A stretch of 64,000 bases of DNA from an uncultured Methanosarcinales archaeon (GCA_964611285.1 CAZSZY010000001.1:1593-65592); one strand, 5' to 3'; shown: positions 11,754-64,000, counted from the stretch's first letter. Numbers and translations: made by a program. Notes: generated from the letters alone by a model not told the origin.

Positions 11754-13985
11754 CTATCCAGCAAGCTGTATATTGTTCATTACTTGACCTGAAACAACGT
11801 TGAAAAGAATGACAATAATAAATACAAGAACGCAATATATCATTGCTGATTTTGTCATGTTTTGCCCTAGTTCATATTGCTCACCAATAACATCAGGACC
11901 ATTTTCTATACCATTACCAATTACCGTCAAGATATATGCAAGCATGATTACATAGAGGCCTACAACTATCTGAAAATAATAGGTTGGAATTCCCGTTCCA
12001 AACATCGCTAAAAGTCCTGCGCCACCCATACCATCAGAACCCGCGGCAACTTTTCCTATTTGATCACCAAGAGTGCCCATAATATTTGTTATCATACTTG
12101 TAATTCCAACAACAACAGCAGAAATTACGGGTGTTAAAAAAAGTGCTTGACTTTTCATACTACTAATAACATCTCCCATTAAATCTTTGAGTCTTTCATC
12201 TACACGGTGCATTTGTTTAATATAATCAGAAACATTGATAATTGCTTGACTTGCTACTCGAGGTCCTTTTCTGCTTGATTCTACAAGAACTTTCATAGAA
12301 CTTTCAATAATATCGGACGGATAATATTTGAGTGCTCCTTTTTCTTTGTCAAAAATGGCTTGATGAACACTCATCCCTAAACGCGTTATATTAACATGTA
12401 CTAGCGTAAAGAATTTTCCCGAGATAGTATTTTGCATCGATTCTGCTACGCGCCCAAAAGCTGTTTCTGCTGGAATTCCATCTCCCAATCTATTTCCTAG
12501 TTGAAAAAGAGCAGATGAAAATTCTACCTCTAATGCTTTTGCTTGCTTTCGTATTTTTATTACATTTCCCGACTTTAACTTATAGAACAAGCCAATGCTC
12601 AATCCCACCCCCAAAGGCACAAATATACTAATAAGAAGCGCCCCCAAACCAAACGGACCAATAACATTGCCGGTTGGGTCATTATCAATAATTTCTTCTC
12701 TATACGCTAAAAATTTAACTTTTGCAAGTTGATCGGGGTTATATTGATCAACCATACCAAATCGCCAACCATTTCCATTATCTACAATTCCATAATCGGG
12801 AAGTCCCAAATTATACCAAATAAGTGGAGAAAAACCAATAAACAATAATACCAAACCAACAGCAGCAGCTAAAAATATTGGTTTAACAAATCTTTCTTTA
12901 TTACCTATTTTAATAACAATATTTTTGTATTTTTTTAATTCAGGATTTTTCTCAGTAATATCCTCATCACCCGATCCTCCAGGACGAGTTGATAAAATGT
13001 TTTTCCCTAAATAATAAACTATTGTTGGCAGTGCTAAATTATAAATTGCAAATAAATGATACCACTTAAATCCACCCATAAAACTTACAACTAAAGGTAA
13101 AATAACAAGCGTTAAGATTGGCAGAACAACACCCAACATGTTTAATGTTGTTAAAGGTGTTTTCAGACCATGAGCATAGTGAAGCATTTTTTCATATGTT
13201 TCATCTAGCATAACACTTAATGATTTATCCAAACTATTTAGTCGTCTATCATTACTTGCTTCGTAAAGTGAAGATTGTATAAGATGCATACTTTCTACAA
13301 ATTCTCGATTATATTTTTGCCAAGTTTCTAAATATGCGTTTAATGAATCTTTTAGTTCATCATATTTTTCTGTTTCAACATCCCATATTATTTTTCTTAA
13401 GTCAAGTGATAATGGAGGAGCTAAATGTTCTGCTGCAAAATTTATTGCTAATTCTAAGTTTGAAGTGTGACGCATGTAGGTCACCACATAAAATATTGCA
13501 AGCACCATCTGATTTGATGCTTTCATTCTCCACGTGTTAGCTAGCATAAATGGTAGTTTTTGTAGAGGTAGCATTAAAAGCAGTCCTCCAAAAAATGCAA
13601 AAATAACAAAGAACGTGTTTCCTTCTTGACCGAGAAGAACAGGAATCATAAAAAAAACAAGTACTGAAAAAAGAACAAGAAGTAATGGTACAAAAATGGA
13701 TGCGCTATTTACACCTGTTGGCGTTGTATTCAAATGACAAATATCTATTGCTTCTTGTAATTTGGGTGCTTTCTTATCGTCTGGTTTGAAAGGGAGTGTT
13801 TTCTCAGCTATCTGACAAAGTTTTTCATAAAAAGAAAGATGAGCGGGCATGTATTGTTGTTTAAAGTCATCATATGCTCGTGATGTGATAGTTTCGTCTT
13901 CTCCAGAGGCCTCTTTACCTGCAAGTTCATGCTCCAAACGTTCTTTAAAGAGCGAAGTTACTTTTTTAATATCAGGGTCGACCAT
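11754..13985 (-). CDS. Type II/IV secretion-system platform protein (FlaJ/TadC/GspF family), polytopic membrane
   Basis: 743 aa. Two cytoplasmic helical T2SSF-like repeats (around LAINFAAEHLAPPLSLDLRKII and RKGPRVASQAIINVSDYI) are each followed by TM bundles. It lies directly downstream of the secretion ATPase and the stop and start are adjacent. Confidence 0.55.
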   Translation of the reverse strand: MVDPDIKKVTSLFKERLEHELAGKEASGEDETITSRAYDDFKQQYMPAHLSFYEKLCQIAEKTLPFKPDDKKAPKLQEAIDICHLNTTPTGVNSASIFVPLLLVLFSVLVFFMIPVLLGQEGNTFFVIFAFFGGLLLMLPLQKLPFMLANTWRMKASNQMVLAIFYVVTYMRHTSNLELAINFAAEHLAPPLSLDLRKIIWDVETEKYDELKDSLNAYLETWQKYNREFVESMHLIQSSLYEASNDRRLNSLDKSLSVMLDETYEKMLHYAHGLKTPLTTLNMLGVVLPILTLVILPLVVSFMGGFKWYHLFAIYNLALPTIVYYLGKNILSTRPGGSGDEDITEKNPELKKYKNIVIKIGNKERFVKPIFLAAAVGLVLLFIGFSPLIWYNLGLPDYGIVDNGNGWRFGMVDQYNPDQLAKVKFLAYREEIIDNDPTGNVIGPFGLGALLISIFVPLGVGLSIGLFYKLKSGNVIKIRKQAKALEVEFSSALFQLGNRLGDGIPAETAFGRVAESMQNTISGKFFTLVHVNITRLGMSVHQAIFDKEKGALKYYPSDIIESSMKVLVESSRKGPRVASQAIINVSDYIKQMHRVDERLKDLMGDVISSMKSQALFLTPVISAVVVGITSMITNIMGTLGDQIGKVAAGSDGMGGAGLLAMFGTGIPTYYFQIVVGLYVIMLAYILTVIGNGIENGPDVIGEQYELGQNMTKSAMIYCVLVFIIVILFNVVSGQVMNNIQLAG

Positions 13986-13986
13986 T

Positions 13987-16401
13987 CTACTGTTTTGTTT
14001 CCTTTTGTTTTTTATCTATTCGTTTCATTTCGTTTTCTAGCCAATCATTCCATTCAAAATAAACAGCATCGGAATCTTCTCTTCCCAGACGCTTAATCAC
14101 TTTTTCCACTGTTTTATGAAATCGATCGTTTGCAAGAATAACAAATTCTGCTTCAATAAGTGAAGGAATATTTTTTTCTTGACTAATATCAAAAATTCGT
14201 TGTTTTATTTTTGCTCGAAGTTCAATATTGTTCCATAGAGCATCCCAATTACCTGTATACTCTTTTATTTTTGCAGCGATATCTTTGAGTATTTCGCTTT
14301 CTCCATTAAGTAGTTCTGGTGTTGGCTCTAGTTGGTCTGTTGCAGCATTGTATTTCATCAAGTCAACAAAACCTCCTTCAAGTCCAGGATCATCTTGCCA
14401 ATCTTTTCTTACTTCTGTAATTTGTAATACTCTTCTCATTTTATGCAGACCGTCCGCAGATTTAATTGGATTTGCAATAACAATAATGTCTGTTGCCTTA
14501 AAGGATGTTTTTGGAATACCAATATCATTAACCAATCGATCATAAATACCGTAAGGACTATCACCGTGAATAGTCCCTGCAACTACGTTTGCTGCAGCTC
14601 CTACTCGCATTGCTTCGTAAAGTGCTTTTGCTTCACCACTTCGTACTTCACCTACAATAAGTGCAGAGTCTCCTAAACGAAGCGTACTTCTAATACCATC
14701 TTCAGCACTAAACTCTTCACCGGATTTTGCAAGAGCACTTGCAACTTTTAGTGGTTGTATGTTAAATCCTAGTTTTCTCATAGATGTTGTTGGAAGTTCT
14801 AATGTATCTTCAATAGTAAGAATTCTGTGACGTCGCATAATTTCAATCAAAAGTGATGACAGAAAACTACTTTTACCACTACTTCTTGTTCCACAAACAA
14901 GTATTGTTCTTGTTCCATCAATTAAGAAAGAAAGAAGTCCTGCTGCCAATCCATTAATCATTTTGTATTTGATAAACAAAGGTAATGTCCATGGCTGATC
15001 TCTATGTCGCCGAAATGAAAATGCAAGCCCTGTTGGATTTAATGGAGAAGTAATAGTTGATGTTCGAACACTCGCTCCTGGAAGTTCTAGTTCGGTATCA
15101 AGAATTGGATTTGCTTCATCTAATGGTCGTCCAGAAATCATTCGTAATTTACTTGCCCAACTTTCACTATCACTAATAGTTGGGAAAATATTTGTTATAC
15201 AATCATCATAGTCTGCATGCACAATAAAGATAGGAATTTCTCCAGGTGGACTGTTCACGCTAATATCTTGAATTTTTTCATCTGAAAGTAAAACTTCCAC
15301 CAGACCAAAACCAACAGTATAACGAACAAGTATTCTTGCAAGTTCTTCATTATCTTCTTCAGTAATTTTTATATTTCTGTAGTTTGCTAGCTCAGAGATT
15401 AAATCTTTTCCTACATTATGAAAAACATCTCTCATTCTTTTTGGGTCGGTAAATTCATCTTTATCTGGTTTATGTTCTGAAAGTATTCTTCTTGCAGTAT
15501 CTAGTAAATCATAAAGTTCTTCGCTAAGTTTAAACTCTGGCGGCATGATGTGATAGAGATATTGTACAGAATCTGGTTTTTCAAAAATAACTATTTCTGT
15601 TTGTCCAACCATGTAGTTTTCTAGTTCTGTTGCGTTTTTTGGATACGCAGCCATAAGTTTGGTAAACATAAAATCTGGTTTTATAGTGGGGAAAAATATT
15701 CTTCGGTAAGGATCTCTATTTCCAATTTCATGTCCTTCAATATAGGGCTTTGCAACTACAAAAAATTTTGTTCCTTCAATCATTGAAGTAATATGATCTA
15801 AAAGTTGAATGTAATGTGTTTGACTGCGCACGAGCACAGAATCTACTTCTTTTTCTAATTGTATTTGTTCTCGACGACGAATTCTCTTTAAACGAACATA
15901 GCAAGATAATGGGTCTTTTTTAAGTTCTGTAAATAAAATATGATGGAGTTCATTATATTTTGAAGAAAGACTTGTTTCTGAAACGCTTTGTGCTAGTGAA
16001 GGATAACTAAAGAGGTCTTTATTTCGAACGAGTTTTGCATATAAACGAGAAATTTCCGCAAGCAATGTTACTTGAGGATAATCATATTCATAATCATGCT
16101 TTTGTGAGAAAATTATTTTTGTTGCTGTTGGATTTTCAACAAGCATAGTTATTGCTTCAGACATCGTGATTTCATCATCTTCTATTGATGGTATTCTACC
16201 ACGTGTATTGTAATCTACAAGCAATGTCGTGCCATCGCCTTCGCGATCCACTTCGTAATTTAGTTTTTTATCTGGCAAAAACACTCTCCCTCTTTTCACT
16301 CCCCAGTGAATATGTTTAGAGTACTCACTAAGTACAATGCAAACTGCAGTTTTACAATATATAAAACTTTGTTTACGCCGAATTTTCCGGTGGTTGCGCA
16401 A
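13987..16401 (-). CDS. Type IV pilus/archaellum assembly ATPase (FlaI/VirB11/CpaF family) with a long N-terminal extension
   Basis: 804 aa. It has Walker A GTRSSGKSS, an Asp box ILTIEDTLEL, Walker B/His box DSALIVGEVRSGEA...TIHGDSP, and roughly 350 extra N-terminal residues. Confidence 0.75.
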   Translation of the reverse strand: MRNHRKIRRKQSFIYCKTAVCIVLSEYSKHIHWGVKRGRVFLPDKKLNYEVDREGDGTTLLVDYNTRGRIPSIEDDEITMSEAITMLVENPTATKIIFSQKHDYEYDYPQVTLLAEISRLYAKLVRNKDLFSYPSLAQSVSETSLSSKYNELHHILFTELKKDPLSCYVRLKRIRRREQIQLEKEVDSVLVRSQTHYIQLLDHITSMIEGTKFFVVAKPYIEGHEIGNRDPYRRIFFPTIKPDFMFTKLMAAYPKNATELENYMVGQTEIVIFEKPDSVQYLYHIMPPEFKLSEELYDLLDTARRILSEHKPDKDEFTDPKRMRDVFHNVGKDLISELANYRNIKITEEDNEELARILVRYTVGFGLVEVLLSDEKIQDISVNSPPGEIPIFIVHADYDDCITNIFPTISDSESWASKLRMISGRPLDEANPILDTELELPGASVRTSTITSPLNPTGLAFSFRRHRDQPWTLPLFIKYKMINGLAAGLLSFLIDGTRTILVCGTRSSGKSSFLSSLLIEIMRRHRILTIEDTLELPTTSMRKLGFNIQPLKVASALAKSGEEFSAEDGIRSTLRLGDSALIVGEVRSGEAKALYEAMRVGAAANVVAGTIHGDSPYGIYDRLVNDIGIPKTSFKATDIIVIANPIKSADGLHKMRRVLQITEVRKDWQDDPGLEGGFVDLMKYNAATDQLEPTPELLNGESEILKDIAAKIKEYTGNWDALWNNIELRAKIKQRIFDISQEKNIPSLIEAEFVILANDRFHKTVEKVIKRLGREDSDAVYFEWNDWLENEMKRIDKKQKETKQ

Positions 16402-16457
16402 GAAATAGGTCTTTTCTCAGGAAATATTTATAAGACGAGTTCATCTTAATAAGTGTT

Positions 16458-17328: not shown

Positions 17329-17365
17329 GTTTTCACTCTCTTTTTTATTTGTACTTTAACTAAGC

Positions 17366-18046: not shown

Positions 18047-18070
18047 GGTTTAGTATCTCAAATAATTATT

Positions 18071-18676: not shown

Positions 18677-18719
18677 ATTATCGCCTCGTGTTATTTATTT
18701 TTTAATAGTAGTATTTAAA

Positions 18720-20685: not shown

Positions 20686-22378
20686 AACACATACTTGTGG
20701 AGAACTTCGAGCAACTGATGTTGATAAAAAAGTAATGCTTGCGGGATGGGTGCACACTATTCGAACTCATGGCGCATTAACATTCATTGATCTTCGAGAC
20801 CGATACGGAATCACACAAATTGCTGCAAACAAAGAATTAGCAGAAAACATTACTAAAGAATCTGTTGTACAAGTTAAAGGAAGCGTGCTCAAAAAACCTG
20901 AAGCAAACAAAGCGTTAGCAACTGGCGAAGTAGAACTTAAAGCAACAGAAGTTACTCTTTTAAACAAATCAAAACCACTTCCTCTAGCACTTGGTAATCC
21001 TGAAACAACAGAAGAAACTCGATTAAAATATCGTTATCTTGATTTGCGAACAAAAAACATGCAGAAAAATCTTATTTTACGTCATAAAGCCACCATTGCT
21101 ATTCGAGAATATTTTGATAAAGAAGGATTCTTAGAATTAGAAACTCCAATTCTTGGTAAAAGTACTCCTGAAGGTGCGAGAGACTATCTTGTACCTAGCC
21201 GAGTTAATCAAGGAAAATTTTATGCTCTTCCTCAAAGTCCTCAAATTTTCAAACAATTGTTTCAAGTTTCTGGTTTGGATAAATATATGCAAATTGTAAA
21301 GTGCTTTCGTGACGAAGATCTTCGTGCAGACCGACAACCAGAATTTACACAAATTGATTTGGAAATGAGTTTTGTTGAAGAAGATGATATTTACAAGTTA
21401 CTTGAAGGAATGATTAAACATGTGTGGAAGAAAACACTTGATGTTGATATCCCAATTCCATTCCCTAGACTAAAATATGAAGAAGCAATGCTCAAGTATG
21501 GTAGTGATAAACCAGACCTTCGATTCGATTTAGAAATTGAGGATGTAACAAAGTGGGCTAAAACTACTGACTTTGGCGTCTTTAAAGAAGCAGAATGTAT
21601 TCGTGCGCTAAAAGTAAAAGAGAACTTTTCTAGAAAACAAATCGACAAGTTAACTGATGTTGTCAAAATTTATGGTGCTAAAGGTTTAGCATTCCTTAAA
21701 CTTGAAGAAGGTCAACTTGCTGGCGGTATCGCTAAATTTGTTAAAGACGCACCATTCAACTTAGAAGAAGGAGAAACTGTTTTCTTTGTAGCTGACATAC
21801 AGCGTACTGTTGCACCTGCACTTGGCGCTCTTCGAAGTCATCTTGGTAAAGAGCTTAATCTTATCAATAAAGATGCTTGGGAATTCGTTTGGATTACTGA
21901 GTTTCCTCTTATGGAATGGAGTGAAGAACGACAATCTTGGGGGCCTATGCATCATCCATTTACCAGTCCAACGCTGGGAGATAGAGCATTACTAAAAACA
22001 ACTCCTGAGAAAGCGAGTTCTCGAGCTTACGATTTAGCATTAAATGGGGTCGAGCTTGGCGGTGGAAGTATTCGGATTCATGATCGAGCTCTTCAAGAAG
22101 AAGTGTTTGATGCATTAAATATTTCTCGAGAAGAACAAGAACGAAAGTTTGGTTTCATGCTTGGTGCTTTTGAATATGGCGCTCCACCTCATGGTGGTTT
22201 AGCATTTGGTCTTGATAGAATAATCATGATGCTTGTTGGTGCAGACAATATTCGAGAAGTTATGGCATTTCCTAAAAACAAAGATGCTCAAGATTTAATG
22301 ATGGATTCACCTAGTGATGCAGAAGATGAGCAACTTGAAGAATTAGGAATTAACATAAAAACACTCAAAAACAAATAA
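20663..22378 (+). CDS. aspS: Aspartyl-tRNA synthetase, bacterial type (with GAD insertion domain)
   Basis: 571 aa. It has class II motifs and the bacterial-type signatures LRYRYLDLR, QSPQIFKQL, FTQIDLEMSF and GGGSIRIHD. The length fits the bacterial type, not the ~430-aa archaeal type. Confidence 0.85.
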   Translation: MEEKSMYRTHTCGELRATDVDKKVMLAGWVHTIRTHGALTFIDLRDRYGITQIAANKELAENITKESVVQVKGSVLKKPEANKALATGEVELKATEVTLLNKSKPLPLALGNPETTEETRLKYRYLDLRTKNMQKNLILRHKATIAIREYFDKEGFLELETPILGKSTPEGARDYLVPSRVNQGKFYALPQSPQIFKQLFQVSGLDKYMQIVKCFRDEDLRADRQPEFTQIDLEMSFVEEDDIYKLLEGMIKHVWKKTLDVDIPIPFPRLKYEEAMLKYGSDKPDLRFDLEIEDVTKWAKTTDFGVFKEAECIRALKVKENFSRKQIDKLTDVVKIYGAKGLAFLKLEEGQLAGGIAKFVKDAPFNLEEGETVFFVADIQRTVAPALGALRSHLGKELNLINKDAWEFVWITEFPLMEWSEERQSWGPMHHPFTSPTLGDRALLKTTPEKASSRAYDLALNGVELGGGSIRIHDRALQEEVFDALNISREEQERKFGFMLGAFEYGAPPHGGLAFGLDRIIMMLVGADNIREVMAFPKNKDAQDLMMDSPSDAEDEQLEELGINIKTLKNK

Positions 22379-34428: not shown

Positions 34429-35724
34429 TTAAGGTTTGAATCTTGTGGGTGTTCTTGGAAATGGTATTGCATCTTTAATACTATCAAGTCCGCAGATCCA
34501 TGCAATCACTCGTTCTACTCCTACACCGTAACCGCTATGTGGTACGCTACCGAATTTTCGCAGGTCAAAATACCAATCATAGTCTGCTGGGTCTTCTCCT
34601 TCTGCTGCAAGTCGATCACTCATATCCTTAACATCAAGACTTCGCTCACTTCCGCCTACAATTTCTGTTCCAATGCCAGGTGCTAACATGTCAAAGCATA
34701 GTGCTTCGTCAGGAAATTCTGGGTCTCGTGGTTTGTAAAAACCCATTGCAACGACTGGATAATGTGTAACTATGCAAGGCGTGTCAAAATGTTGCATGAT
34801 TGCTCGCTCTTCTTCTGTTCGAAGATCTTTTCCAAAGGGAACATCAATACCATCTTTTTCTTTAATCATTGCAACTGCATCTCGATATTTGATGCTCGGC
34901 CAGTCTTTCTCGCACATTGCAATAAGTGCTTGTGGATCTTGTTCTAAAAATTCAAAATCTTCTGCTCGCTCTTCTGCGCATTTTTTGACGCAGTATTTGA
35001 GTTCTTCTTTTGCAAATGCAGTAACTTCTGGTAGTTGCATCCATGCTGCTTCCATTTCTGCCATCCAAAATTCGCTTAAGTGACGTGACGTATTACTTTT
35101 TTCTGCACGAAACGTTGGTCCCATGTCGTAGATTTTTTCTAGTGCAAAAATTCCTGCTTCGCCGTATAACTGCCAAGTTTGTGCCAAATATGTTTTGTCT
35201 TGATAGTATTTTACTTCAAAAACCGTGCTTCCACCCTCACTTTGTGAAGGTTGTAGTATTGGCGTATCAAATCTAAAAAATCCTTGTTGTTTATAAAATT
35301 CATCTCTAGCTTGCACATAGCTACTTCGAATTTTCATAATTGCTGTAAGTCGTCGGCTTCTAAGAGAAAGATGTCGTTTGTCCAGCAAGAATTCTTGGCT
35401 TTGGTCTTTTCCTATTGGAAATTGATCGCTTTCACCAACGACAGTAAATTCTTTTACTGCAATTTCATAACCACTTGGCGCTCGCTCATCTTTTTTGATA
35501 GTGCCTGTTATCTTCATACTTGCTTCGATTTGCAGTTTACCTGCAATGTCAAATTGTTCATCGCCAATAACATCTCGTTCTATAACACATTGTATAATTG
35601 CCGAGCTATCTCTAAGTACGATAAATTGTAGTTTTTTACTGCCTCGTTCTCTATAGACCCAACCGCGAATGGAAACTTCTCCTTCGCCCTGAGCCATTGC
35701 TTCTTTTATTGATTGGTATGTCAT
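34429..35724 (-). CDS. asnS: Asparaginyl-tRNA synthetase (class IIb). AsnRS is favoured over archaeal-type AspRS
   Basis: About 431 aa from the likely start MTYQSIKEAM at 35724; the drawn ORF extends to 35784. It has an N-terminal OB fold. Motif 3 is GSVPHSGYGVGVERVIAWICG. The GGSERSLDV segment resembles the AsnRS GGSQRE motif. Confidence 0.65.
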   Translation of the reverse strand: MTYQSIKEAMAQGEGEVSIRGWVYRERGSKKLQFIVLRDSSAIIQCVIERDVIGDEQFDIAGKLQIEASMKITGTIKKDERAPSGYEIAVKEFTVVGESDQFPIGKDQSQEFLLDKRHLSLRSRRLTAIMKIRSSYVQARDEFYKQQGFFRFDTPILQPSQSEGGSTVFEVKYYQDKTYLAQTWQLYGEAGIFALEKIYDMGPTFRAEKSNTSRHLSEFWMAEMEAAWMQLPEVTAFAKEELKYCVKKCAEERAEDFEFLEQDPQALIAMCEKDWPSIKYRDAVAMIKEKDGIDVPFGKDLRTEEERAIMQHFDTPCIVTHYPVVAMGFYKPRDPEFPDEALCFDMLAPGIGTEIVGGSERSLDVKDMSDRLAAEGEDPADYDWYFDLRKFGSVPHSGYGVGVERVIAWICGLDSIKDAIPFPRTPTRFKP

Positions 35725-35972
35725 TTTTGTTTCCTCATATTGTTTATTTTGATTTTTTGGAAAATGAATGATAAATATAAGCACAATACTCCTTAATAAG
35801 AGTTTGTATTAACTGCCTACAAGGGCTAGAAAGTGGTTTTATGCACGATTAATTACACTATACACTACTTGAAGCATTGACTTGTCCTTGTCCGTTGTTG
35901 TATAGTATGCGTACATCTTAAGATAAAATAATCATAACTCATTTATAAATTTTGGCAGTATAATTAAGAGAA

Positions 35973-39024: not shown

Positions 39025-40236
39025 TTAATCTCCTTTCCAGTCAAGGTAGAATTTCACTTGGTCGCGTCGTTCTGCTTCCATATAGCGATGTTTTATGTTG
39101 CTAGAAAACTCTTTATTTTCTTTTCCACTAAAATATTCTTCTAAGAACTCTTTTGCGTAATCGTCATAAGAACCGTTTTTTATTGCTTCTCGCAGTTCTT
39201 TAACAAGATTGTTCATAAAATGTAAGTTATGAATTGTTGCTAGTTTGTAGCCAATGAGTTCATGACTTCGAAGCATGTGATGTACGTATGCTCGAGAATA
39301 ATTTTTGCATGTAGAACAAGTACAACCTTCTTCAATTGGCCCTTTGTCTTCTTTATACAAAACTTTTTTGATGGCAATTCTTCCTTTCTTAGTAAGCATG
39401 CTTCCATGTCGTGCGTTTGATGTTGGATAAATACTGTCAAAACAATCAACTCCAAGACCAACAGCTTTGACAACATCTGGCGGACTTCCTAAGCCCATAA
39501 GATACTTTACTTTGTCAACTGAAAAATGTTTCACACTTTGCGCAATCATATCCATAAGCTCTGCTCGGCTCTCTCCAATAACAAGACCTCCAAGCGCAAC
39601 ACCATCAAAATCCATTTCATTAATTTTATATGTGGAAAATCTCCTGTATTCATCGCGTGTTCCACCTTGCGCTATACCAAAGAGTAATTGTTTACTTCCT
39701 GTTTCTTCTTTGATTTTTTTATGATGCAGTAAACTTCGTTTTGCCCAATCATGAGTTCTTCGTATCGCATCAACATATGATTTTCCATCTAACCCGTAAT
39801 GCGCAACATCATCTAATGTCATGGCAACATCAGAATTTAATTTGAGCTGATTTTCCATAGCAATCTCAGGGGTATACTTATGCTTCTTTCCCCATTTATC
39901 TTTGAAGAGTGCGCCCTCATCTGTTTTCTTAATTAAGAAATCTTTACTTAAGACTTGAAATCCACCGCTGTCTGTAAAAATTGTTTTATTAAAACCGGTG
40001 AATTTGTGAATACCGCCAAGTTTTCCCACCACATCAATTCCTGGCGCAAGCGAGAGAAGAAAGGAGTTGTTAATCATTGCTTCATAACCAAGAAAATCAA
40101 TGTCATCAGCAGCCATGGCTTTGACACTACCTTTGCTTGCAACAGGCATAAAAAAAGGTGTGATAACATCTCCGTGTGCCGTAGTAAGTTTTCCTACGCG
40201 CGCCTTGCCATCAGTATGAAGTATTTGAAATACCAT
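39025..40236 (-). CDS. tgt: tRNA-guanine transglycosylase catalytic domain (archaeosine/queuine TGT family), with no PUA or C-terminal domains
   Basis: 403 aa. It has the TIM-barrel TGT motifs (DSGGFQ, GIAQGG), a zinc site CTCSTCKNYSRAYVHH, and the archaeal-type N-terminus MVFQILHTDGKARVG. Confidence 0.8.
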   Translation of the reverse strand: MVFQILHTDGKARVGKLTTAHGDVITPFFMPVASKGSVKAMAADDIDFLGYEAMINNSFLLSLAPGIDVVGKLGGIHKFTGFNKTIFTDSGGFQVLSKDFLIKKTDEGALFKDKWGKKHKYTPEIAMENQLKLNSDVAMTLDDVAHYGLDGKSYVDAIRRTHDWAKRSLLHHKKIKEETGSKQLLFGIAQGGTRDEYRRFSTYKINEMDFDGVALGGLVIGESRAELMDMIAQSVKHFSVDKVKYLMGLGSPPDVVKAVGLGVDCFDSIYPTSNARHGSMLTKKGRIAIKKVLYKEDKGPIEEGCTCSTCKNYSRAYVHHMLRSHELIGYKLATIHNLHFMNNLVKELREAIKNGSYDDYAKEFLEEYFSGKENKEFSSNIKHRYMEAERRDQVKFYLDWKGD

Positions 40237-56829: not shown

Positions 56830-57375
56830 TTATGGCTTTTGGTCCAGTGCTTTAAGAAGTTGCTTTATAAAGACCATATCATATCCTTGCGTGATAAGCA
56901 TTTGCGACATTTGGTCCGGCGTCCATCCTGCTTGAACATATTGTCTCATGGTTGGCAGAATTTTATTAACTGCCTCAATTGTTATATGCTTATGATGGTG
57001 TTTTCTCCACATAATTAATCCAATTAAAGAGATTAAGAGAAGTACTCCAATTATTCCAACAATTAAAACCAAGTTGTTAGTATACATATCTGTTGAGAAA
57101 TTATTAAGATTGTTTTCTATTTCGTCTTCAGGAGGAGTGTAAGCTTCTGGAATATAAATTCTGTCTGGAGTGGATGTTTGCACTTCCGCTAGTTCGGAAA
57201 CATTACTATAATATGCTGGCGCGACATTGCTTTCACAAAATGCATAATAATCATCACCAAGTTCTGCTATTGCTCTCTCGGGGGTATCACATATAGAAAA
57301 GTCAAAAGCAATAACTACAAAAGAGAAAAGAAAAAAGAATAATACTATCAAAAGTATTTTTCTTAAATATTGCAT
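56830..57375 (-). CDS. Small membrane protein (two TM helices)
   Basis: 181 aa. Its start overlaps the stop of the giant upstream gene. Confidence 0.3.
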   Translation of the reverse strand: MQYLRKILLIVLFFFLFSFVVIAFDFSICDTPERAIAELGDDYYAFCESNVAPAYYSNVSELAEVQTSTPDRIYIPEAYTPPEDEIENNLNNFSTDMYTNNLVLIVGIIGVLLLISLIGLIMWRKHHHKHITIEAVNKILPTMRQYVQAGWTPDQMSQMLITQGYDMVFIKQLLKALDQKP

Positions 57376-60300
57376 ATTTGACCTCTCGTATCACCTAAGT
57401 GCGGTGCTCCATAATAACAACAACTTGTTGTTGTTTGCCGAGCGTCTTCAGCGGCAGTCCATTTACGAGTTCCCATTTCAAAATGCCACCATTCTTTTCC
57501 ATAACGAACAAAACCATGTTGACACATAAATGATTCTTGTTGCACATAATCTATTTGTTTTGATGTTGCTAAGTCAACTATTTGAATATCTATTGCGCCG
57601 CCAACTTGGTGTGGACAAAGCTTTGCTTTAGGATCATCCTTACTTCCAGGATTACAAGCCATACTACTATCAAATCCTGATAACTCCCAAAGTTTGTATT
57701 GAATATCCCATGAACGATGTGCTTGTGTAATTATCATCGTCCAACCTTTTTGCTTGAGCTCTGGCGATAATTTTTTTAATTCTGTCACGAGTTGTTCATT
57801 GCCTGCACATATTTTTCCTACACTCGTTTGTGTTTCATCACAAATAACGTTCGGAATATCTGTTATTTGATATAGTGGACTAACTTTATCTAAAGGATTT
57901 ACAAATCCCGGATATATTTTTAGATTGCTTGCTGTTTTTGGAATTAAATCATCTGTTGTTATGAACATATTTTTGTTGTGTATACAAATGAAATTTGCTG
58001 CATAGTTGCTTGTGGTAAATTGTGTTCCTGCCTTAAGCAAGCTCAGTTCTGTATCTGAAAGTGGAAGAGGACTGTTTTGCGAGTCTAGAAATTTAAAAGA
58101 TGAAGTTTGAGTTGATGTTCCGTTGTTTCCATAGTTATCAACAGGTGTTATTCGGTAATAATAATCAATATTATCTTCAAAGGATTTTCCATAAGGACTT
58201 TTTCCATTAACTTTAAAGAAATATTTGTTCACTTGCCCTGATTGCACACCAAGTTGTTCAAGTATCGCGGGATATTGTTGACTAATTGGTAATTCTAATG
58301 CTGTTGCCACAAGAACGTTTTGTTGTCCTACATTTGTTTTAAAAGACACATCCTCTGAAATTTCAATAATAAAAGAATATATTTCTTCTTGATTGGATGG
58401 CGTTTCCCACTTCAGAAGTATTGTTGAAGAAAGGCCTAAGATGTCCAGTTGCCCAGTAAAAGGAAGAGATTCTATAGATGAAGGATTGACTAATGGACTA
58501 TTAAAAATGGTTTGAGAATCAAACCCCAAAGGATTCAGTGATGGTGTTTCTAAACAAACACCAGTAGTTGAAGATGTAGCAGGCCGAACTTGCGGTGGTT
58601 TGACATCATTTAAGTAGACACTAAATTTGAGAATATCTCCTGTAGTAAGTATTTCTGCTTGAAAACTAAAATAATGTTTATTGTCTTCACAAGTAAGATG
58701 TGTAACATTTTGTTGATAAGGAAGCCATGTCATTGATGAATATGTTTGTTTGAGAAGGCCGAACGCGAGAACGTCTGTTCCTGTTTGAGAACCTGCAGGA
58801 TTTGTTGGTGTAATAATATTCCAAGGATTTGTAGTGGTAGATATTTTTCCCGCGCCCGTATCATCCACCCATAACTTTGCATCATCTATATCTTGGGTGT
58901 TTCCTGTTATATTAAGAATAATTGCTGATTGCGATAATGAAAGATTACTTGTTGGAATTGCGGGATTAAAAGGGAATTCGTACACGAATTTTCCTTCTGC
59001 AGTAAATGTTCCATTTGAAAAGAATATCATGTTTTGATGTTTTTTTCCCAATCCTCTATAATCAGTAACTATTGGACAAATACAATCTTTTTGTTCGTTA
59101 AATCGACAATCCAAAACTTGCTCCACCACATCATCTGCTAAAGGATTGTCTTCTTTTAATCGAGTAATAATAATATTTTTTGCATGTTTTCCATTAAACT
59201 GTTGCATTTTAGCAAGCACACAAGTTTCTAAATCATTATCACATGTTTTAAGCTCAGGAATGAAGTCTTGAGAGATAAAATTCATTGTTGCCAAATCCAT
59301 TTTTGTTGATGTTGAGAATGCAGGTGTAAATGTTAATTCTGAAGTAATATGTAGTGATGAGAGTGCTGATAAGTCATCCCAGTTTGCATCAAAATATGCT
59401 CTCCACGAGCAATATAATCCTTTCGCTCGCTCTGCATACTCGCATGTTTTGTCTTGCACAAAATATTGTTTGCCACTACCTATGACTTTTTCGTAACTTC
59501 CTTGATAAATACAGAATATACAATTCCAAAATGTTTCAGGGGTGTTTTTGTATGCTGAGCATTCTTCGTATTTTCCTGTGACAGCATCAACACCATCCAA
59601 TGCTTCTTTGTATGCTCCTAAATCTGTTTTTGCAGTACAACTTGTTTGACTTTCGTCAGATACAACCCACTGTCCTGTACAACCACAACCTGCAGCGCAA
59701 GATAACGGCCAACCACAACCAGTTAACGAACTTTTTTGTTGGCTAGTACATTTATCATTTTTTCCTAAGCTTGATTCTAAAACCATGTGCGTAACTAAAA
59801 GTGCAGGGTCTACCCCAGAATCAATAGCTGTTTGTATTGCTAAATCGTAGTATGTTAATTGTGGTGATTTGAATGGTTTAGAACTAAGTTGATTAATATA
59901 ATTCTGTGATGGTGCTGATACTGTTGTTTGTGCGTCACACCATTCAAAAGGTCCAATAAATGGAGGGATGACTTGTAAGTCAGGTGGTAAGAGAGCATTT
60001 CCACTTGCCTGATAAGAAGGTCTAAATATTGCTTCTATTTTGGTGTCTAAACCTGATGCATATTTTTCTGGTAAGAATTCTTTTACCAAACCTTTTTTTG
60101 GATCAGCATGAATAATAATTGGTTTGCCTGCTATCTTATCTGTTTCAATGTATATCGCTATATAAATTCCGCCTCCAGGAACATCGGAACCGTCTTCTCG
60201 CACTCGTTGTTCGTCTCGCAGGAAAAGTATGTCTCCTGGCTCTGCGTTTGTTAAAAGATATGCAAGCGTGCAGGTTTTTTGTTTGCAGACAAGTGATTGT

Positions 60301-61280
60301 GCTTCTGCTTGTTGTAAGTATGTCGCTTCTCCTTCTCGATTTGTAAAAAAAGTTATATTGGCATGTTTTGCTACCCACCACACCCATCCTGCGCTATCAA
60401 ATCCTGGCGGAAGCAGAGTTCGTTGAGTAAATCTATCATCAGGAATGGTTAATCTTGAAAAAAATGTATCTGTTAAAGAAACAATTGAAGATGGTTGCGT
60501 GGGTGTTGTTGTTGGCGCTACGTATCCTGAAAGAGTTCGTACATCTTGCGGACAATAAGGTGATTCTCCATTGACAATATAAGCGTATTTTTTATTTTGT
60601 GTTTTGTAAGTCTCGTAAAGTAAATTGGTAACTTGTGCAAAACATTCGCCTGTTGAGCACGTTATTGGTTTTTCTTTTGTGTAAAAACCAAGCGCGGTTT
60701 TAGGATATTGTTTTCTAATTAAAAAAAGATCTTTGCAAGTATATGTTTTTGCTTGATCAGTTGTGCTTTTTGAGATGAAGGGGAGAGAAACTTCTTCTCC
60801 TGATGCTTGCAGAGCAAGTTCTTGCGATGATAGTTGAGCAAGATTTAAATCGTATAAGAAATAAAGTGGAGTATCTCCTGGATAATGTTGTAGATAGTTA
60901 AAGAAGAAGTCATCAAAATAATTTTTTATAGTATTAGAATATTTGGGCATACAGTCTTTTGTTTTTGAATTATAATTTGGATACAAATAATTTCCGCAGG
61001 CAGAGGGCACCGTATCGCCTGTTTCTGTGAGTTGTTGATAAACACCAGCACTTTCTAGAAACGCACTTCTTGTTAATGTTGCTGAAAGGTCAGCTGCTTT
61101 GTCTATATACGTGTTTGCCGCCGCGGCTTTTTCTACCTGTTGTAAGATAGTATACTGATTTACACCTATATCATTCTTAACAGTTGTCAATGAGTTATTT
61201 GAAACGAGAAGAGCAACTCCTATCAAGAAGAAAAGCGCGACAAGTGGCCATTGTACTCCTCCTTTTTTTCCTCGTATCAT
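57363..61280 (-). CDS. Giant secreted multidomain protein with a pilin-like N-terminus, an SLT/lysozyme-like segment, Ig/FN3-like repeats and a C-terminal VanY/peptidase-M15 (D,D-peptidase) domain
   Basis: 1305 aa. The N-terminus is MIRGKKGGVQWPLVALFFLIGVALLV. The SLT-like segment is GVDPALLVTHMVLESSLGKND. The C-terminal M15 motifs are ITQAHRSWDIQ, CPHQVGGAIDIQ (HxxGxAxD) and GKEWWHFE (ExWH). Confidence 0.6.
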   Translation of the reverse strand: MIRGKKGGVQWPLVALFFLIGVALLVSNNSLTTVKNDIGVNQYTILQQVEKAAAANTYIDKAADLSATLTRSAFLESAGVYQQLTETGDTVPSACGNYLYPNYNSKTKDCMPKYSNTIKNYFDDFFFNYLQHYPGDTPLYFLYDLNLAQLSSQELALQASGEEVSLPFISKSTTDQAKTYTCKDLFLIRKQYPKTALGFYTKEKPITCSTGECFAQVTNLLYETYKTQNKKYAYIVNGESPYCPQDVRTLSGYVAPTTTPTQPSSIVSLTDTFFSRLTIPDDRFTQRTLLPPGFDSAGWVWWVAKHANITFFTNREGEATYLQQAEAQSLVCKQKTCTLAYLLTNAEPGDILFLRDEQRVREDGSDVPGGGIYIAIYIETDKIAGKPIIIHADPKKGLVKEFLPEKYASGLDTKIEAIFRPSYQASGNALLPPDLQVIPPFIGPFEWCDAQTTVSAPSQNYINQLSSKPFKSPQLTYYDLAIQTAIDSGVDPALLVTHMVLESSLGKNDKCTSQQKSSLTGCGWPLSCAAGCGCTGQWVVSDESQTSCTAKTDLGAYKEALDGVDAVTGKYEECSAYKNTPETFWNCIFCIYQGSYEKVIGSGKQYFVQDKTCEYAERAKGLYCSWRAYFDANWDDLSALSSLHITSELTFTPAFSTSTKMDLATMNFISQDFIPELKTCDNDLETCVLAKMQQFNGKHAKNIIITRLKEDNPLADDVVEQVLDCRFNEQKDCICPIVTDYRGLGKKHQNMIFFSNGTFTAEGKFVYEFPFNPAIPTSNLSLSQSAIILNITGNTQDIDDAKLWVDDTGAGKISTTTNPWNIITPTNPAGSQTGTDVLAFGLLKQTYSSMTWLPYQQNVTHLTCEDNKHYFSFQAEILTTGDILKFSVYLNDVKPPQVRPATSSTTGVCLETPSLNPLGFDSQTIFNSPLVNPSSIESLPFTGQLDILGLSSTILLKWETPSNQEEIYSFIIEISEDVSFKTNVGQQNVLVATALELPISQQYPAILEQLGVQSGQVNKYFFKVNGKSPYGKSFEDNIDYYYRITPVDNYGNNGTSTQTSSFKFLDSQNSPLPLSDTELSLLKAGTQFTTSNYAANFICIHNKNMFITTDDLIPKTASNLKIYPGFVNPLDKVSPLYQITDIPNVICDETQTSVGKICAGNEQLVTELKKLSPELKQKGWTMIITQAHRSWDIQYKLWELSGFDSSMACNPGSKDDPKAKLCPHQVGGAIDIQIVDLATSKQIDYVQQESFMCQHGFVRYGKEWWHFEMGTRKWTAAEDARQTTTSCCYYGAPHLGDTRGQICNI

Positions 61281-61942
61281 CGTGTAAATAAATTAACCTC
61301 AACCATTAATTTAATGAAGTTTGCGCGATACGTCGTTTCTGGTTTTCGCATTTCTACAACAACAATATATTGATTTGGACCAAAGTTGCCGACTTTTTGT
61401 GTTGGTAGAGTAACTATTGCTTGTATTTCGTTTTGTTTTTTTAATTTCCCTGGATGAGAATACTCGTGTACATCTTTTCCTGTTGTTGTATCTACAAGTC
61501 TGATAACGTAATACACATCTTCTGCATATTCCATAAATGATTGTTGTAACTTTTTACTAAGTGGTTGATAGTAATTCATGGTGTGTTCAAACTCATCTTC
61601 CAATATATCTGATTTTAGCACGTCTCTTCGTGCTTCAACGATTTTATCTTTTGGATGAAGCGTCATGTAATAGTCTAGAAGCGCAAATTCTACAATGAAT
61701 GTTTGTGGCGTTCCTTGCTCGCCATCAATAATTAAAGGTGTTTGCATATATGTTTGTAAGAGCCGTTGTTGCTCGTAGCTATTATGAAGCTCGTAAACAT
61801 CGTCAGTAACTGATTTTCCTACAAGCGTATTTACTTGGTTAAATATGATAAATCCTGCAACAATTAAAAGAAGTGCAAAAAATATTGATGCGATATCGTC
61901 AGACATCCAACCAACTCCTTTTTTGTTCATTCTTCTAACCAT
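61277..61942 (-). CDS. Type IV pilin-like protein (class III signal peptide candidate)
   Basis: About 217 aa if the start is M5 at 61930. The N-terminus is MNKKGVGWMSDDIASIFFALLLIVAGFIIF, i.e. KKG followed by a hydrophobic helix. Confidence 0.5.
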   Translation of the reverse strand: MVRRMNKKGVGWMSDDIASIFFALLLIVAGFIIFNQVNTLVGKSVTDDVYELHNSYEQQRLLQTYMQTPLIIDGEQGTPQTFIVEFALLDYYMTLHPKDKIVEARRDVLKSDILEDEFEHTMNYYQPLSKKLQQSFMEYAEDVYYVIRLVDTTTGKDVHEYSHPGKLKKQNEIQAIVTLPTQKVGNFGPNQYIVVVEMRKPETTYRANFIKLMVEVNLFTR

Positions 61943-62768
61943 AAAATGTCACCTTAAGTTCTGCTGGCATGAGTTTTCCTGTGGTTGTTTTGACTTGACA
62001 AATTCCTTTGTAGTCTGCTACAAAATCTTGATAGGTACAAGCACCAACTTTTGAATAACAAAAATCGGAAAGTTTTGGTTGTGGATTGTATTTTGCTGCT
62101 TGAGCACTAAGAGAAAGTAAGCATGTTGCGTTGGGATTATTTGGAACTAAAGTTACTGCATCAGTAATACAGTCTTCAATTGCTTTAAAGTCATCTTCTG
62201 ATAATTCAACTGGCATGTTAAACAAACAGTCGTTTTGTTTATTTGCTTCAAGAAGTGCATCTTTTCTAAGACCACAAAATTCTTTATGATATACTTCTTT
62301 CACAAGAACGTATCGTTCTTGCGCAGGAGCTGGTTTCATATTCTTAATAATTTCAAGGGGGGATAGTTTACTATCTGTTTCTAGAAGTATTGCTCGTCGC
62401 ACTTGAAATGCATTTGGATCTGTTGGTAATGGACGCACATCAATAGTCACTGTGGGCAAGATATCTTCGCCTACAAAGCACTCATGTATGCGCGTATCTG
62501 ATATTTTTGATAGGTCAATAATGCTAGGATGTACTTCTGATTGTTGTGCTGTTGTTTGCTCCGTCCATGAAAAACAAGTATTTGTAACTCGTGAGATAAA
62601 AAGATCTTCATTAAGTTGATATGGTGTTTTGGTTAGTGATGCAAAAAAGGTTGCTCCAAAGCCCCATATTGAGAAGACTAACCATATAGAAATAATGAGA
62701 CCTATAAGCCAATAAAATACTTTACTAGTAGTAACTTCCTGACCTTTTTTGTTATCAAATAATCGCAT
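61935..62768 (-). CDS. Type IV pilin-like protein (class III signal peptide candidate)
   Basis: 277 aa. The N-terminus is MRLFDNKKGQEVTTSKVFYWLIGLIISIWLVF, a KKGQ motif followed by a hydrophobic helix. Confidence 0.55.
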   Translation of the reverse strand: MRLFDNKKGQEVTTSKVFYWLIGLIISIWLVFSIWGFGATFFASLTKTPYQLNEDLFISRVTNTCFSWTEQTTAQQSEVHPSIIDLSKISDTRIHECFVGEDILPTVTIDVRPLPTDPNAFQVRRAILLETDSKLSPLEIIKNMKPAPAQERYVLVKEVYHKEFCGLRKDALLEANKQNDCLFNMPVELSEDDFKAIEDCITDAVTLVPNNPNATCLLSLSAQAAKYNPQPKLSDFCYSKVGACTYQDFVADYKGICQVKTTTGKLMPAELKVTFYG

Positions 62769-62846
62769 AGCTATTTCACTTTAATTTCTGCGTATTTATC
62801 GCTTATATAACTTACCTTCCTATAGAAACCACTCTAAAGTAAAGAA

Positions 62847-63755
62847 CTAAGGATTAAGTGTTTTTTGTGCTTGGGGATAGGTTTGTTCTATTGCTGCTGC
62901 AATAGCTCCGGCAATTATTCGTTGTGTATCTGAGTCCTGAAGCGTGGCAAAGTTTGCATGTGATGTTCCCAAAGAAATGTCCATTGTTCCTTGCGAATAT
63001 GAATAAGTTTGTTGTCCACCAATAATAGGTTGTAAAAGACCATCTAATACTTGCCTACTATTTGCTACTAAAAGTCGAACTGCATCAGGATTAATATCTG
63101 AATAATAAATAATATGTTGTTGCTCAGGTGAGAAACTAAGTTGCACAATAATTGTTGCTTGAGACTCGGGAACTGTTGGAATATGGAGTGCTGCTAATTG
63201 TTGATTGAGTGCTTGCGCAATATTCGTAAGAATGTTTGCATCTCCGCTCGTGCCAGGAACTGTTGTTACAGCAATTTTTACATTTGTTAGTCCTGTTGCT
63301 TGTGAAGTTACTTGTGCTAATGATACAGACCCATCATGCACTATTACCGCGCTTCCTTGTTTTGTAAGAATAACAAGTGCCGCATCAAGTGTTGTTTCGG
63401 CTGGAAGCACAACGTCATCTGAGCCGTAAAAATAGTATTCATGAAATGTGGTTAGTCTAGATATCTTTTTTTGAGGAGCATCTTTTGCCGCGACAACTTG
63501 TATACTATTATCTTTTTGAATAACACTTCTTGTCTGTAGAGAAACAGGATGTTGATAAGTAACATCGTATGGTGATGAGTGAAGTGCTTCTAACTCCAAA
63601 GCCACATTTTTTGCTAATATAGTACTCTCTAATTTTTCTGGATGAATATACACATCAACTAAGTTAAGTAATACAATCCCGACCATCGCCGCAATAATAA
63701 GACCGCCTATGGTTGCAAGGTTCCACTCAACGGATGCTTTTTTATTTGTAAACAT
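62847..63755 (-). CDS. Type IV pilin-like protein (class III signal peptide candidate)
   Basis: Likely start is the second Met at 63755, giving MFTNKKASVEWNLATIGGLIIAAMVGIVLL. The drawn ORF extends to 63800, overlapping the upstream stop. Confidence 0.5.
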   Translation of the reverse strand: MFTNKKASVEWNLATIGGLIIAAMVGIVLLNLVDVYIHPEKLESTILAKNVALELEALHSSPYDVTYQHPVSLQTRSVIQKDNSIQVVAAKDAPQKKISRLTTFHEYYFYGSDDVVLPAETTLDAALVILTKQGSAVIVHDGSVSLAQVTSQATGLTNVKIAVTTVPGTSGDANILTNIAQALNQQLAALHIPTVPESQATIIVQLSFSPEQQHIIYYSDINPDAVRLLVANSRQVLDGLLQPIIGGQQTYSYSQGTMDISLGTSHANFATLQDSDTQRIIAGAIAAAIEQTYPQAQKTLNP

Positions 63756-63768
63756 TATATTTCTCTTA

Positions 63769-64000
63769 TTATTGTACTGATTCAAAACTCTTGGAAACAA
63801 GTGTTAACAGAAGAATTCTACTTGGAGGGGGTCCAGATTGCTCTTTAATGCTTGGTTTAAATGCTTGTCCTAAAGATTGTGTTTCTGTCTGATTTGGAAT
63901 TCCTGTTCCTATCGCGGTACATATATCTTCGACTGATTTTTCAGTAATATACAGTTTTGATGAAGTTTCTTGATTGTTAAGAAGAACGTTATCTACTACA
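63769..64000 (-). CDS. 3' end of a further gene of the pilin-like cluster (C-terminal fragment; the gene continues beyond the window)
   Basis: A manually translated open frame ...IGTGIPNQTETQSLGQAFKPSIKEQSGPPPSRILLLTLVSKSFESVQ* ends at a TAA whose reverse complement lies at 63769-63771. It is not in the ORF track because it is partial. Confidence 0.35.
   Translation of the reverse strand, partial: VVDNVLLNNQETSSKLYITEKSVEDICTAIGTGIPNQTETQSLGQAFKPSIKEQSGPPPSRILLLTLVSKSFESVQ

Follow-up and report, generated by a model that had tools for sequence, protein, structure and literature searches.

A conserved pilin-like operon of a Woesearchaeota-type archaeon ends in a multidomain murein hydrolase, a candidate for filament-borne display

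Introduction

Why would an archaeon, which makes no murein, encode a giant protein with murein hydrolase domains at the end of a long run of pilin-like genes? The question is raised by a 64,000-nucleotide stretch of DNA listed under an uncultured Methanosarcinales archaeon (GCA_964611285.1, CAZSZY010000001.1:1593-65592; "the window" below means this whole stretch), where a protein of 1305 amino acids (aa) is encoded by the last pilin-like gene of a minus-strand cluster. The explanation that we consider best, with belief and doubt in about equal measure, is a filament or pseudopilus which is processed as class III (prepilin-type) signal proteins are and displays the murein hydrolase against a bacterial wall or wall debris.

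Among DPANN archaea whose partners are known, most live on other archaea. For the abundant Woesearchaeota, the possibility that they exploit bacteria instead has so far rested on the annotation of a few genes of transglycosylases. Large extracellular murein-transglycosylase proteins were described in Woesearchaeota and Pacearchaeota, and episymbiosis with bacteria or predation on them was suggested (Castelle et al. 2021, PMC8204110; Vigneron et al. 2022, PMC9723730, the latter reporting GH23 genes). Neither pili nor pilins are mentioned in these two papers. The locus analysed here gives that hint the form of an apparatus that is defined, conserved and open to testing, with 14 pilin-like genes, a widespread 82-aa candidate subunit and several murein bond specificities.

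The source organism is a DPANN archaeon of the Woesearchaeota type, as indicated by the archaeal RNase P RNA present in the window and by the names of homologues of the studied genes, which are Woesearchaeota, Nanoarchaeota or Nanobdellota wherever a name exists. Genes of topoisomerase VI, RIO kinase and replication protein RPA were found among those of the window by Pfam scans.

Organization and conservation of the pilin-like operon

The part of the cluster lying beyond the window was taken from other assemblies of the same population (L001, L014 and L015), and loci of other lineages (L003/L008, L004, L006/L009 and L010, and the variant loci L011, L012 and L013) served for comparison. The window itself contains the following genes of the locus; in the sequence strings, here and below, a hyphen marks the putative processing site.

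56830..57375, minus strand: conserved gene of a 181-aa protein, downstream of the hydrolase gene (open reading frame (ORF), with counterparts in other loci)
57363..61280, minus strand: gene of the 1305-aa multidomain murein hydrolase with a class-III-like N-terminus, the last pilin-like gene (ORF)
61277..61942, minus strand: gene of a 221-aa pilin-like protein (217 aa counted from MNKKG; N-terminus shared by its L003 and L004 orthologues)
61935..62768, minus strand: gene of a 277-aa pilin-like protein, …NKKG-QEVTTSKVFYWLIGLII… (N-terminus near-identical in L003 and L004)
62847..63755, minus strand: gene of a 302-aa pilin-like protein, MFTNKKA-SVEWNLATIGGLIIAAMVGIVLL (orthologues in L003 and L004)
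63769..64000, minus strand: 3' end, encoding the C-terminus, of the gene of a 499-aa pilin-like protein, whose N-terminus, …VRG-EIRMSLVAIASLIMVALF, lies beyond the window (from L001, L014 and L015)

An earlier reading, made by a model from the sequence alone (the sequence-only reading), had placed at least four consecutive genes on this strand, at 57363..61280, 61277..61942, 61935..62768 and 62847..63755, with a partial gene running to 64000. ORFs lie at exactly these coordinates, and the count proved a fair minimum: nine more pilin-like genes follow past the end of the window, so that the full cluster consists of 14 consecutive same-strand genes, whose frames overlap or nearly abut. The same reading had the cluster headed by the 1305-aa gene, an order that is reversed on the minus strand, where the large gene comes last. 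The lengths of the encoded proteins are, in order, 180, 380, 164, 162, 82, 394, 245, 330, 222, 499, 302, 277, 221 and 1305 aa. The overlaps amount to 4 bp between the genes of the 1305-aa and 221-aa proteins, 8 bp between those of the 221-aa and 277-aa proteins, and 13 bp between those of the 181-aa and 1305-aa proteins. The longest ORF of the 302-aa gene, starting with TTG, extends to 63800, while an independent gene call on another assembly starts at the ATG (63755).

The locus is syntenic in at least six lineages of Woesearchaeota and Nanoarchaeota. The order in L003/L008, L004, L006/L009 and L010 is 13-17 pilin-like genes, the giant hydrolase, a protein of 165-181 aa, RPA, YdjM and an ABC-2 transporter; the giant gene and, after it, the counterpart of the 181-aa gene occupy the same positions in L003, L004, L006 and L010. 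The giant hydrolases of these loci share 29-60% mutual identity. In the variant loci, the cluster ends with an M15 protein of 350-375 aa and a further large protein, with Amidase_2 and 3D domains in two loci out of three.

It is this conservation that bears on the possibility of a lysis or tail module of a prophage or other mobile element carried by chance. Fold-level matches of the enzyme modules do include the diffocin hub-hydrolase and the phi812 baseplate. The guanine-cytosine content is uniform across the window (about 35-36%), synteny with the housekeeping RPA gene is kept across lineages whose giants have diverged to the extent given above, and no phage or integrase genes occur in any locus table. 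We give hardly any credence to such an origin, and reject it on the grounds of the uniform base composition and the deep synteny.

Where upstream DNA of the syntenic loci was fetched, two giant surface proteins with Sec-type signals precede the pilin-like genes, and in the source population a gene of a 919-aa Sec-type surface protein lies upstream of the cluster. These proteins are encoded at 1506-8394 in L008, 569-8089 in L009 and 634-3393 in L014. Of the two kinds, one (1362-1422 aa) is rich in Cys, and the other (919-1073 aa), with a transmembrane (TM) segment and a K/E-rich tail at its C-terminus, resembles an S-layer or anchor protein. The 181-aa protein encoded at the opposite end has a Sec-type signal, a Cys motif (FDFSICD…DDYYAFCE), a second TM segment and a His-rich tail (KHHHKH), and could be an accessory or protective factor.

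Domains of the 1305-aa protein

The 1305-aa protein has five full-length orthologues (49-60% identity) and a relative of 1803 aa, all from Woesearchaeota. Its regions, all encoded on the minus strand, are as follows.

61197..61280, minus strand: residues 1-28, putative class III signal or pilin-type anchor, MIRGKKG-GVQWPLVALFFLIGVALLV (alignment and AF2)
60495..61196, minus strand: residues 29-262, conserved N-domain, common to short M15 proteins
60006..60428, minus strand: residues ~285-425, module of NlpC/P60 fold, catalytically degenerate (Ser296 for Cys, Ile372 for His)
59361..59873, minus strand: residues ~470-640, Cys-rich lysozyme-like (GH23/SLT-like) module with candidate catalytic Glu502
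57996..59303, minus strand: residues ~660-1095, spacer with no recognised domain (no Pfam or PDB match), conserved among orthologues
57411..57833, minus strand: residues ~1150-1290, peptidase M15 (VanY/LdcB-like) domain with R1189, Q1194, H1224, D1231, E1263 and H1266

By sequence comparison, the assignment of the C-terminal domain to peptidases M15 is secure and its active site is intact. Taken alone, the 1305-aa protein stays below threshold in Pfam (VanY E=0.0033, 17.7 bits vs. a 25-bit cutoff; Peptidase_M15 also sub-threshold). Searched against 1.84 billion representatives, a profile of the domain found 298 proteins, of which 56 had E<=1e-10; HxxGxAxD is present in 125 and ExWH in 145 of the 148 relatives listed, and 28 of the 38 top matches contain Pfam VanY at E<=0.001 (best 1.7e-18). 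Searches of PDB with a profile of 17 family members, led by the window sequence, gave YodJ/LdcB (4ox3, 2e-9), VanX (1r44, 5e-9), the phage enzyme Ply500 (3e-8) and also VanXY, with YRS..Q, HxxGxAxD and ExWH in register with 4ox3 and 1r44. The last two motifs correspond to H1224..D1231 and E1263..H1266 and are invariant in the five full-length orthologues; all six residues listed above are invariant both in the orthologues and in the 17-member family alignment. The VanY/M15 domain recognised in the sequence-only reading by HxxGxAxD and ExWH is thereby borne out, its residues aligning with those of LdcB/YodJ and VanX of solved structure.

The two modules in the middle of the protein are of different standing. 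PDB searches by sequence, with the single sequence or with a five-orthologue profile, gave nothing useful for the whole protein or its three enzyme regions. The Cys-rich module has a lysozyme-like fold, in which a helix ends with Glu502 of the invariant LESS motif. In GH23 enzymes, the catalytic Glu likewise terminates a helix. Thus, the SLT/lysozyme-like stretch noticed from the sequence alone holds at the level of fold and not at that of a Pfam SLT match: no SLT or lysozyme profile and no PDB sequence matched the module, the sole Pfam match being Glucosaminidase (E=0.045). In one relative (P0009), the Pfam SLT threshold is passed at the equivalent position, with a different local motif. A word-indexed search for homologues in which the central region was added yielded one further protein only, P0007, a Sec-secreted 405-aa stand-alone copy of the Cys-rich lysozyme-like domain (QESSMG…SSLTGCGW…WNCIFC). 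The existence of this copy indicates that the domain is a distinct mobile module, outside the coverage of Pfam.

The module preceding it has the papain-like NlpC/P60 fold and lacks the catalytic Cys and His, the Ser296 and Ile372 substitutions being common to the 1305-aa protein and its close orthologues. Three relatives (P0010, P0019 and P0022) retain both residues (PGFDCSGW...H..Y.GNG..H) and pass Pfam NLPC_P60. As its catalytic residues are replaced, the module of the 1305-aa protein is a pseudo-enzyme and not an active member of the family; it is best read as a binding module, with stem peptides as its probable ligand. The domain list given for this protein in the sequence-only reading was therefore correct as to M15 and the SLT-like region, and missed the NlpC/P60 module with its dead active site.

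An N-terminus of the same kind was found in 73 of 119 full-length-looking relatives of the M15 domain, most of which are proteins of 330-430 aa composed of leader, N-domain and M15 domain; in the giants, the NlpC/P60, lysozyme-like and spacer regions are inserted between the N-domain and M15. To judge from these relatives, the fusion of leader and hydrolase is a trait of the family. The N-domain is characterised by G39-x2-Q42-Y43, a helix of 40 residues and the pair C95/C110.

Murein enzymes at the end of the locus are not confined to this architecture. Active NlpC/P60 domains are encoded there in P0010, P0019 and P0022; P0009 combines a Pfam-grade SLT domain with an NlpC/P60 domain that passes Pfam and is devoid of the Cys, and a GDSL esterase is found in P0008. 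The Amidase_2 and 3D proteins of other lineages also begin with …NRKG-GAELYFLMIA. The meeting of several independent murein bond specificities at a single pilin-like operon is the strongest argument for bacterial peptidoglycan as the substrate.

The same architecture, an N-terminal TM segment and several wall-hydrolase domains encoded inside the operon of an apparatus, is that of VirB1, PrgK and CwlT, which serve bacterial secretion and conjugation, and might be taken to mean that the hydrolases remodel the archaeon's own envelope for the passage of the apparatus. We find this very improbable, as no genes of murein or pseudomurein synthesis were found in the window by Pfam scans, and the substrates of M15 and Amidase_2 enzymes, stems with D-amino acids and MurNAc, are missing from archaeal walls. 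Pseudomurein was also considered as a target and regarded as unlikely, given that M15, Amidase_2, GH23 and 3D enzymes act on features that it lacks.

N-terminal motif of the cluster proteins

All 14 cluster genes of the source genome encode a short basic leader, K/R followed by G/A, and a hydrophobic helix; examples are MKKA-QINMVFTFIAALLLIG, MKKKG-QSEIVGLVVIVIIISV and MNKKG-SELSMNVIIIAAIGVLILV. In a census of five lineages, [KR][GAS] directly before the hydrophobic segment was found in 63 of 64 cluster N-termini, with G in 38, A in 22 and S in 3 cases at position -1, K/R at -3 in 49 of 63, Gln at +1 in 20 of 63 and a median leader of 9 residues; the [KR][GAS] figure is partly set by the choice of the site, which does not apply to the frequency of 63 in 64, the charge at -3 or the Gln at +1. 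Outside the cluster, [KR][GA] precedes the N-terminal hydrophobic segment in 2 of about 10 window proteins, and the remaining ones carry ordinary Sec or lipobox signals (MKKILLFLVIFSLFLASC and similar), unlike the cluster motif. In the orthologues of the 1305-aa protein, K6, G8, V9 and Q10 are invariant together with the helix, which AF2 predicts at residues 10-28, and [KR]K[GAS] aligns as a column over 26 members of the family of 17-63% identity.

The N-terminal strings quoted in the sequence-only reading are exact in the translated ORFs, and the KKG motif, on whose conservation that reading depended, is kept in orthologues and in every gene of the longer syntenic cluster. Its statement that the helix follows KKG or KKA directly is true of the 1305-aa and 302-aa proteins and has to be given up for the 221-aa and 277-aa ones.

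Filament machinery and candidate major subunit

Genes of a possible filament core lie elsewhere in the window, 43 kb from the cluster in the case of the ATPase.

13987..16401, minus strand: type IV filament assembly ATPase of 804 aa, candidate motor (Pfam T2SSE, 8.5e-15)
11754..13985, minus strand: 743-aa protein with ~8 TM segments, directly downstream of the ATPase (hydropathy scan)

The best matches of the ATPase in PDB are archaeal GspE-like 2oap (3.5e-26), CpaF (2.9e-21) and FlaI (2.3e-15), and it is a candidate motor for the pilin-like proteins. The 743-aa protein, which is possibly the platform protein, has no match in Pfam, NCBIfam or PDB, platform models included. The ATPase has a long N-terminal extension, and upstream of it a 133-aa coiled-coil protein and three paralogous multi-TM proteins of 191-226 aa are encoded, the latter with no family match; the region 11754-19295 (minus strand) may be an unusual filament core module.

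Within the cluster, the best conserved protein is the member of 82-86 aa. In the source genome, the N-terminus of this 82-aa protein reads KKG-SELSMNVIIIAAI..., and its invariant core, KKG-x-(E/D)LS(M/I)N-IIIAAIA, is followed by a small tail with four Cys. More than 1200 homologues of it occur in the word-indexed database; among the 120 listed, none is labelled as pilin (the labels are hypothetical, DUF6719, DUF948 or similar), and the named ones are nearly all from Woesearchaeota, Nanoarchaeota or Nanobdellota. One homologue (P0216), labelled Bacteroidota bacterium in NCBI, stands amid Woesearchaeota and Nanoarchaeota entries and is probably from a mis-binned contig. The size and conservation of the 82-aa protein are as expected for a major pilin of the head-less Epd/Flp type, which makes it a candidate major subunit.

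Several observations weigh against a filament. Ten cluster proteins searched at E<=0.1 to 1 match no pilin or class III model of Pfam or NCBIfam, the 221-aa, 277-aa and 302-aa ones matching no family at all, and the N-domain of the 1305-aa protein matches no pilin-like or other known fold. A scan of 48 ORFs of the window, with five ORFs of >=120 aa outside it, revealed no Peptidase_A24 or other class III signal peptidase, and no Peptidase_A24 was found among the called genes of the fetched loci that bear precomputed Pfam annotation. Seven loci show no ATPase or platform gene up to 10 kb from the cluster, and the 10 kb further upstream in L008 and L009 encode two giant Sec-type surface proteins and no ATPase, platform or peptidase. 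In the 221-aa and 277-aa proteins, the helix begins 8-10 polar residues after the putative site, which is atypical (KKG-VGWMSDDIAS-IFF... and KKGQ-EVTTSKVFY-WLIG...). As to the enzymatic cargo, the AF2 model of the lysozyme-like module is only moderately confident (pLDDT about 50-80). Finally, the N-terminal motif is shared by a cyclophilin (20059-20685) and a 567-aa protein (4843-6546), and may therefore double as a plain membrane anchor.

These observations lend substance to the view that the N-termini are uncleaved signal anchors and the operon encodes type II membrane proteins of a surface complex, in which the hydrolase is tethered to the membrane and no filament is formed. The failure to find a peptidase or a pilin hidden Markov model (HMM) match, the N-domain devoid of a pilin fold and the motif of the cyclophilin all fit such a complex, and the positive-inside rule leads one to expect K/R ahead of a TM helix. 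The charge rule alone explains neither the small residue (G/A/S) right after K/R in nearly every N-terminus of the census nor the enrichment of Gln at +1; a run of 14 such genes including that of a tiny, very conserved helix protein is typical of filament operons, and a filament ATPase is present. We therefore hold plain anchoring to be rather unlikely, and prefer processed, filament-forming subunits.

The two proteins that share the motif deserve a description of their own. The cyclophilin-type prolyl isomerase (plus strand) begins with …KNNRG-KLVVGIIAAIIVILIIGYLV, in the style of the cluster, and is either an extracytoplasmic foldase with the same export or anchor signal or an instance of the motif as a plain anchor. 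The 567-aa protein (minus strand), encoded far from the cluster, has the class-III-like N-terminus …QRKG-QAHTVVGAGGAALLVLLITL and repeated Cys-rich DKDCCF motifs, and no Pfam match.

Proposed mechanism

Given that searches revealed neither a prepilin peptidase nor a match to a curated pilin HMM, and that the N-domain corresponds to no fold yet known, the display of the hydrolase on a filament is something that we infer, as are signal cleavage, tip location, enzymatic activity and the bacterial target. In the filament model, a class III signal peptidase encoded elsewhere would process the cluster proteins, and the type IV filament ATPase and platform, for which 11754-16401 encodes a candidate pair, would assemble them, by way of their hydrophobic N-terminal helices, into a short fibre or a pseudopilus. 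The 82-aa member would be the major subunit and the other cluster proteins minor ones. The 1305-aa subunit, the last and largest, might be held at the fibre tip or at the cell surface; placement at the tip is suggested by analogy with the largest minor pseudopilin, which caps type II secretion pseudopili, and by sterics. The GH23-like module (Glu502) may then cut glycan strands and the M15 zinc peptidase (His1224/Asp1231/His1266, Glu1263) peptide stems, while the dead NlpC/P60 module probably binds stem peptides. As the archaeon makes no murein, the substrate would be the wall of a bacterium, be it host, prey or neighbour, or bacterial wall debris. A pilus- or fibre-displayed enzyme directed at a bacterial wall was also what the sequence-only reading suggested, and the analysis supports that interpretation in part.

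The choice between the last two leads to a reading in which the same assembly merely scavenges: a bindosome-like display could obtain amino sugars and peptides by digesting free debris of bacterial walls, with no attack on living bacteria. Archaeal class III signal proteins of non-pilin function are known, e.g., the sugar-binding proteins of the Sulfolobus bindosome, according to a 2026 survey preprint (bioRxiv 10.64898/2026.04.22.720090), and next to the locus an ABC transporter is conserved. This transporter, however, is a pair of the ABC-2 exporter type that lacks a binding protein, and the window revealed no genes for the catabolism of muropeptides or amino sugars. The stacking of several bond specificities on a single polypeptide is reminiscent of the wall-breaching enzymes of phage tails and conjugation systems. 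Scavenging is in our opinion unlikely.

The widest form of the filament model, which we put forward tentatively and with more doubt than confidence, is a type IV filament organelle common to the lineages of Woesearchaeota and related Nanoarchaeota, whose multi-enzyme murein-degrading tip would breach living bacteria; such a cross-domain device of attack or attachment might be the basis of episymbiosis or predation. If true, this would extend archaeal type IV filament biology to the display of enzymes against another domain of life.

Other features of the window

The window contains a pair of class II tRNA synthetases of Asp/Asn/Lys type (20663-22378, plus strand, and 34429-35784, minus strand). 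One of them, of 571 aa, has a GAD domain, as has bacterial-type AspRS, and may be a bacterial-type acquisition; the other, of 451 aa, has none. A queuine/archaeosine tRNA-ribosyltransferase (TGT, E 4e-122) of 403 aa is encoded at 39025-40236 (minus strand), with the catalytic domain alone detected. Its short length recalls the bacterial queuosine pathway reported for some DPANN archaea (PMC8204110).

Comparison with known systems

The closest published counterparts of the 1305-aa protein are the murein glycosidase proteins of the same phylum, very large and secreted, which were proposed to bind or degrade the walls of bacterial hosts or prey (Castelle et al. 2021; Vigneron et al. 2022). With fam00969 of the former study (PMC8204110), it agrees by description in taxon, size and predicted function. 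It differs in that these papers mention no M15 or NlpC/P60 module and no operon context, and that the 1305-aa protein itself has no Pfam SLT match. The statement of the sequence-only reading that it knew of no described pilin-fused M15/SLT protein needs to be narrowed: large murein hydrolases of Woesearchaeota are published, and the link with a pilin-like operon appears not to be. A full-text literature search found nothing that joins an archaeal pilin or class III signal with a peptidoglycan hydrolase, and neither "peptidoglycan" nor "hydrolase" occurs in two surveys of archaeal type IV filaments (PMC4858521 and bioRxiv 10.64898/2026.04.22.720090). The pilin-like leader of the hydrolase, the conserved 14-gene operon, the family of M15 and N-domain proteins and the widespread candidate major subunit appear to be new.

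In its peptidase domain, the protein resembles LdcB/YodJ, VanY and VanX, with which it shares YRS..Q, HxxGxAxD and ExWH, the same zinc ligands and the catalytic Glu; unlike them, it is very divergent, fused to an N-terminal extension of 1150 residues and encoded by an archaeon. The enzymes PrgK, TraG, CwlT, phi29 gp13, the diffocin hub-hydrolase CD1368 and those of the phage phi812 baseplate act on the wall of the producer or of the phage host, whereas here the producer is an archaeon devoid of murein and the anchor is pilin-like.

Epd pilins carry Gln at +1. The cluster proteins resemble those of archaeal type IV filament systems such as Epd in the short basic leader, K/R-G/A, the hydrophobic helix and the frequent Gln at +1. 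The likeness extends to the long operon of diverse pilin-like genes, the tiny candidate for the major pilin and the presence in the genome of an ATPase related to those of Tad/CpaF and to FlaI. The Epd pilus ("system 1") of Methanococcus is encoded by a cluster of 11 genes, including that of a small major pilin with no head domain, as described by Makarova et al. (2016, PMC4858521) and in the survey bioRxiv 10.64898/2026.04.22.720090. Unlike such systems, the present one shows no pilin homology at the level of HMMs and encodes no ATPase, platform or peptidase within the operon; wall hydrolases are not known from any of the described systems.

Class III signal proteins with cargo other than pilins are described, as bindosomes, in the latter survey. 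The Sulfolobus bindosome, in which sugar-binding proteins are assembled by BasEF, is a precedent for functional non-pilin domains that are mounted on a class III signal and helix and need filament machinery. Its cargo consists of solute-binding proteins encoded beside ABC importers, while here murein hydrolases end a 14-gene pilin-like operon. Considered against all these systems, the hydrolase is a divergent member of a known theme, and the locus would represent a type IV filament-like system of archaea that has been equipped with murein hydrolases.

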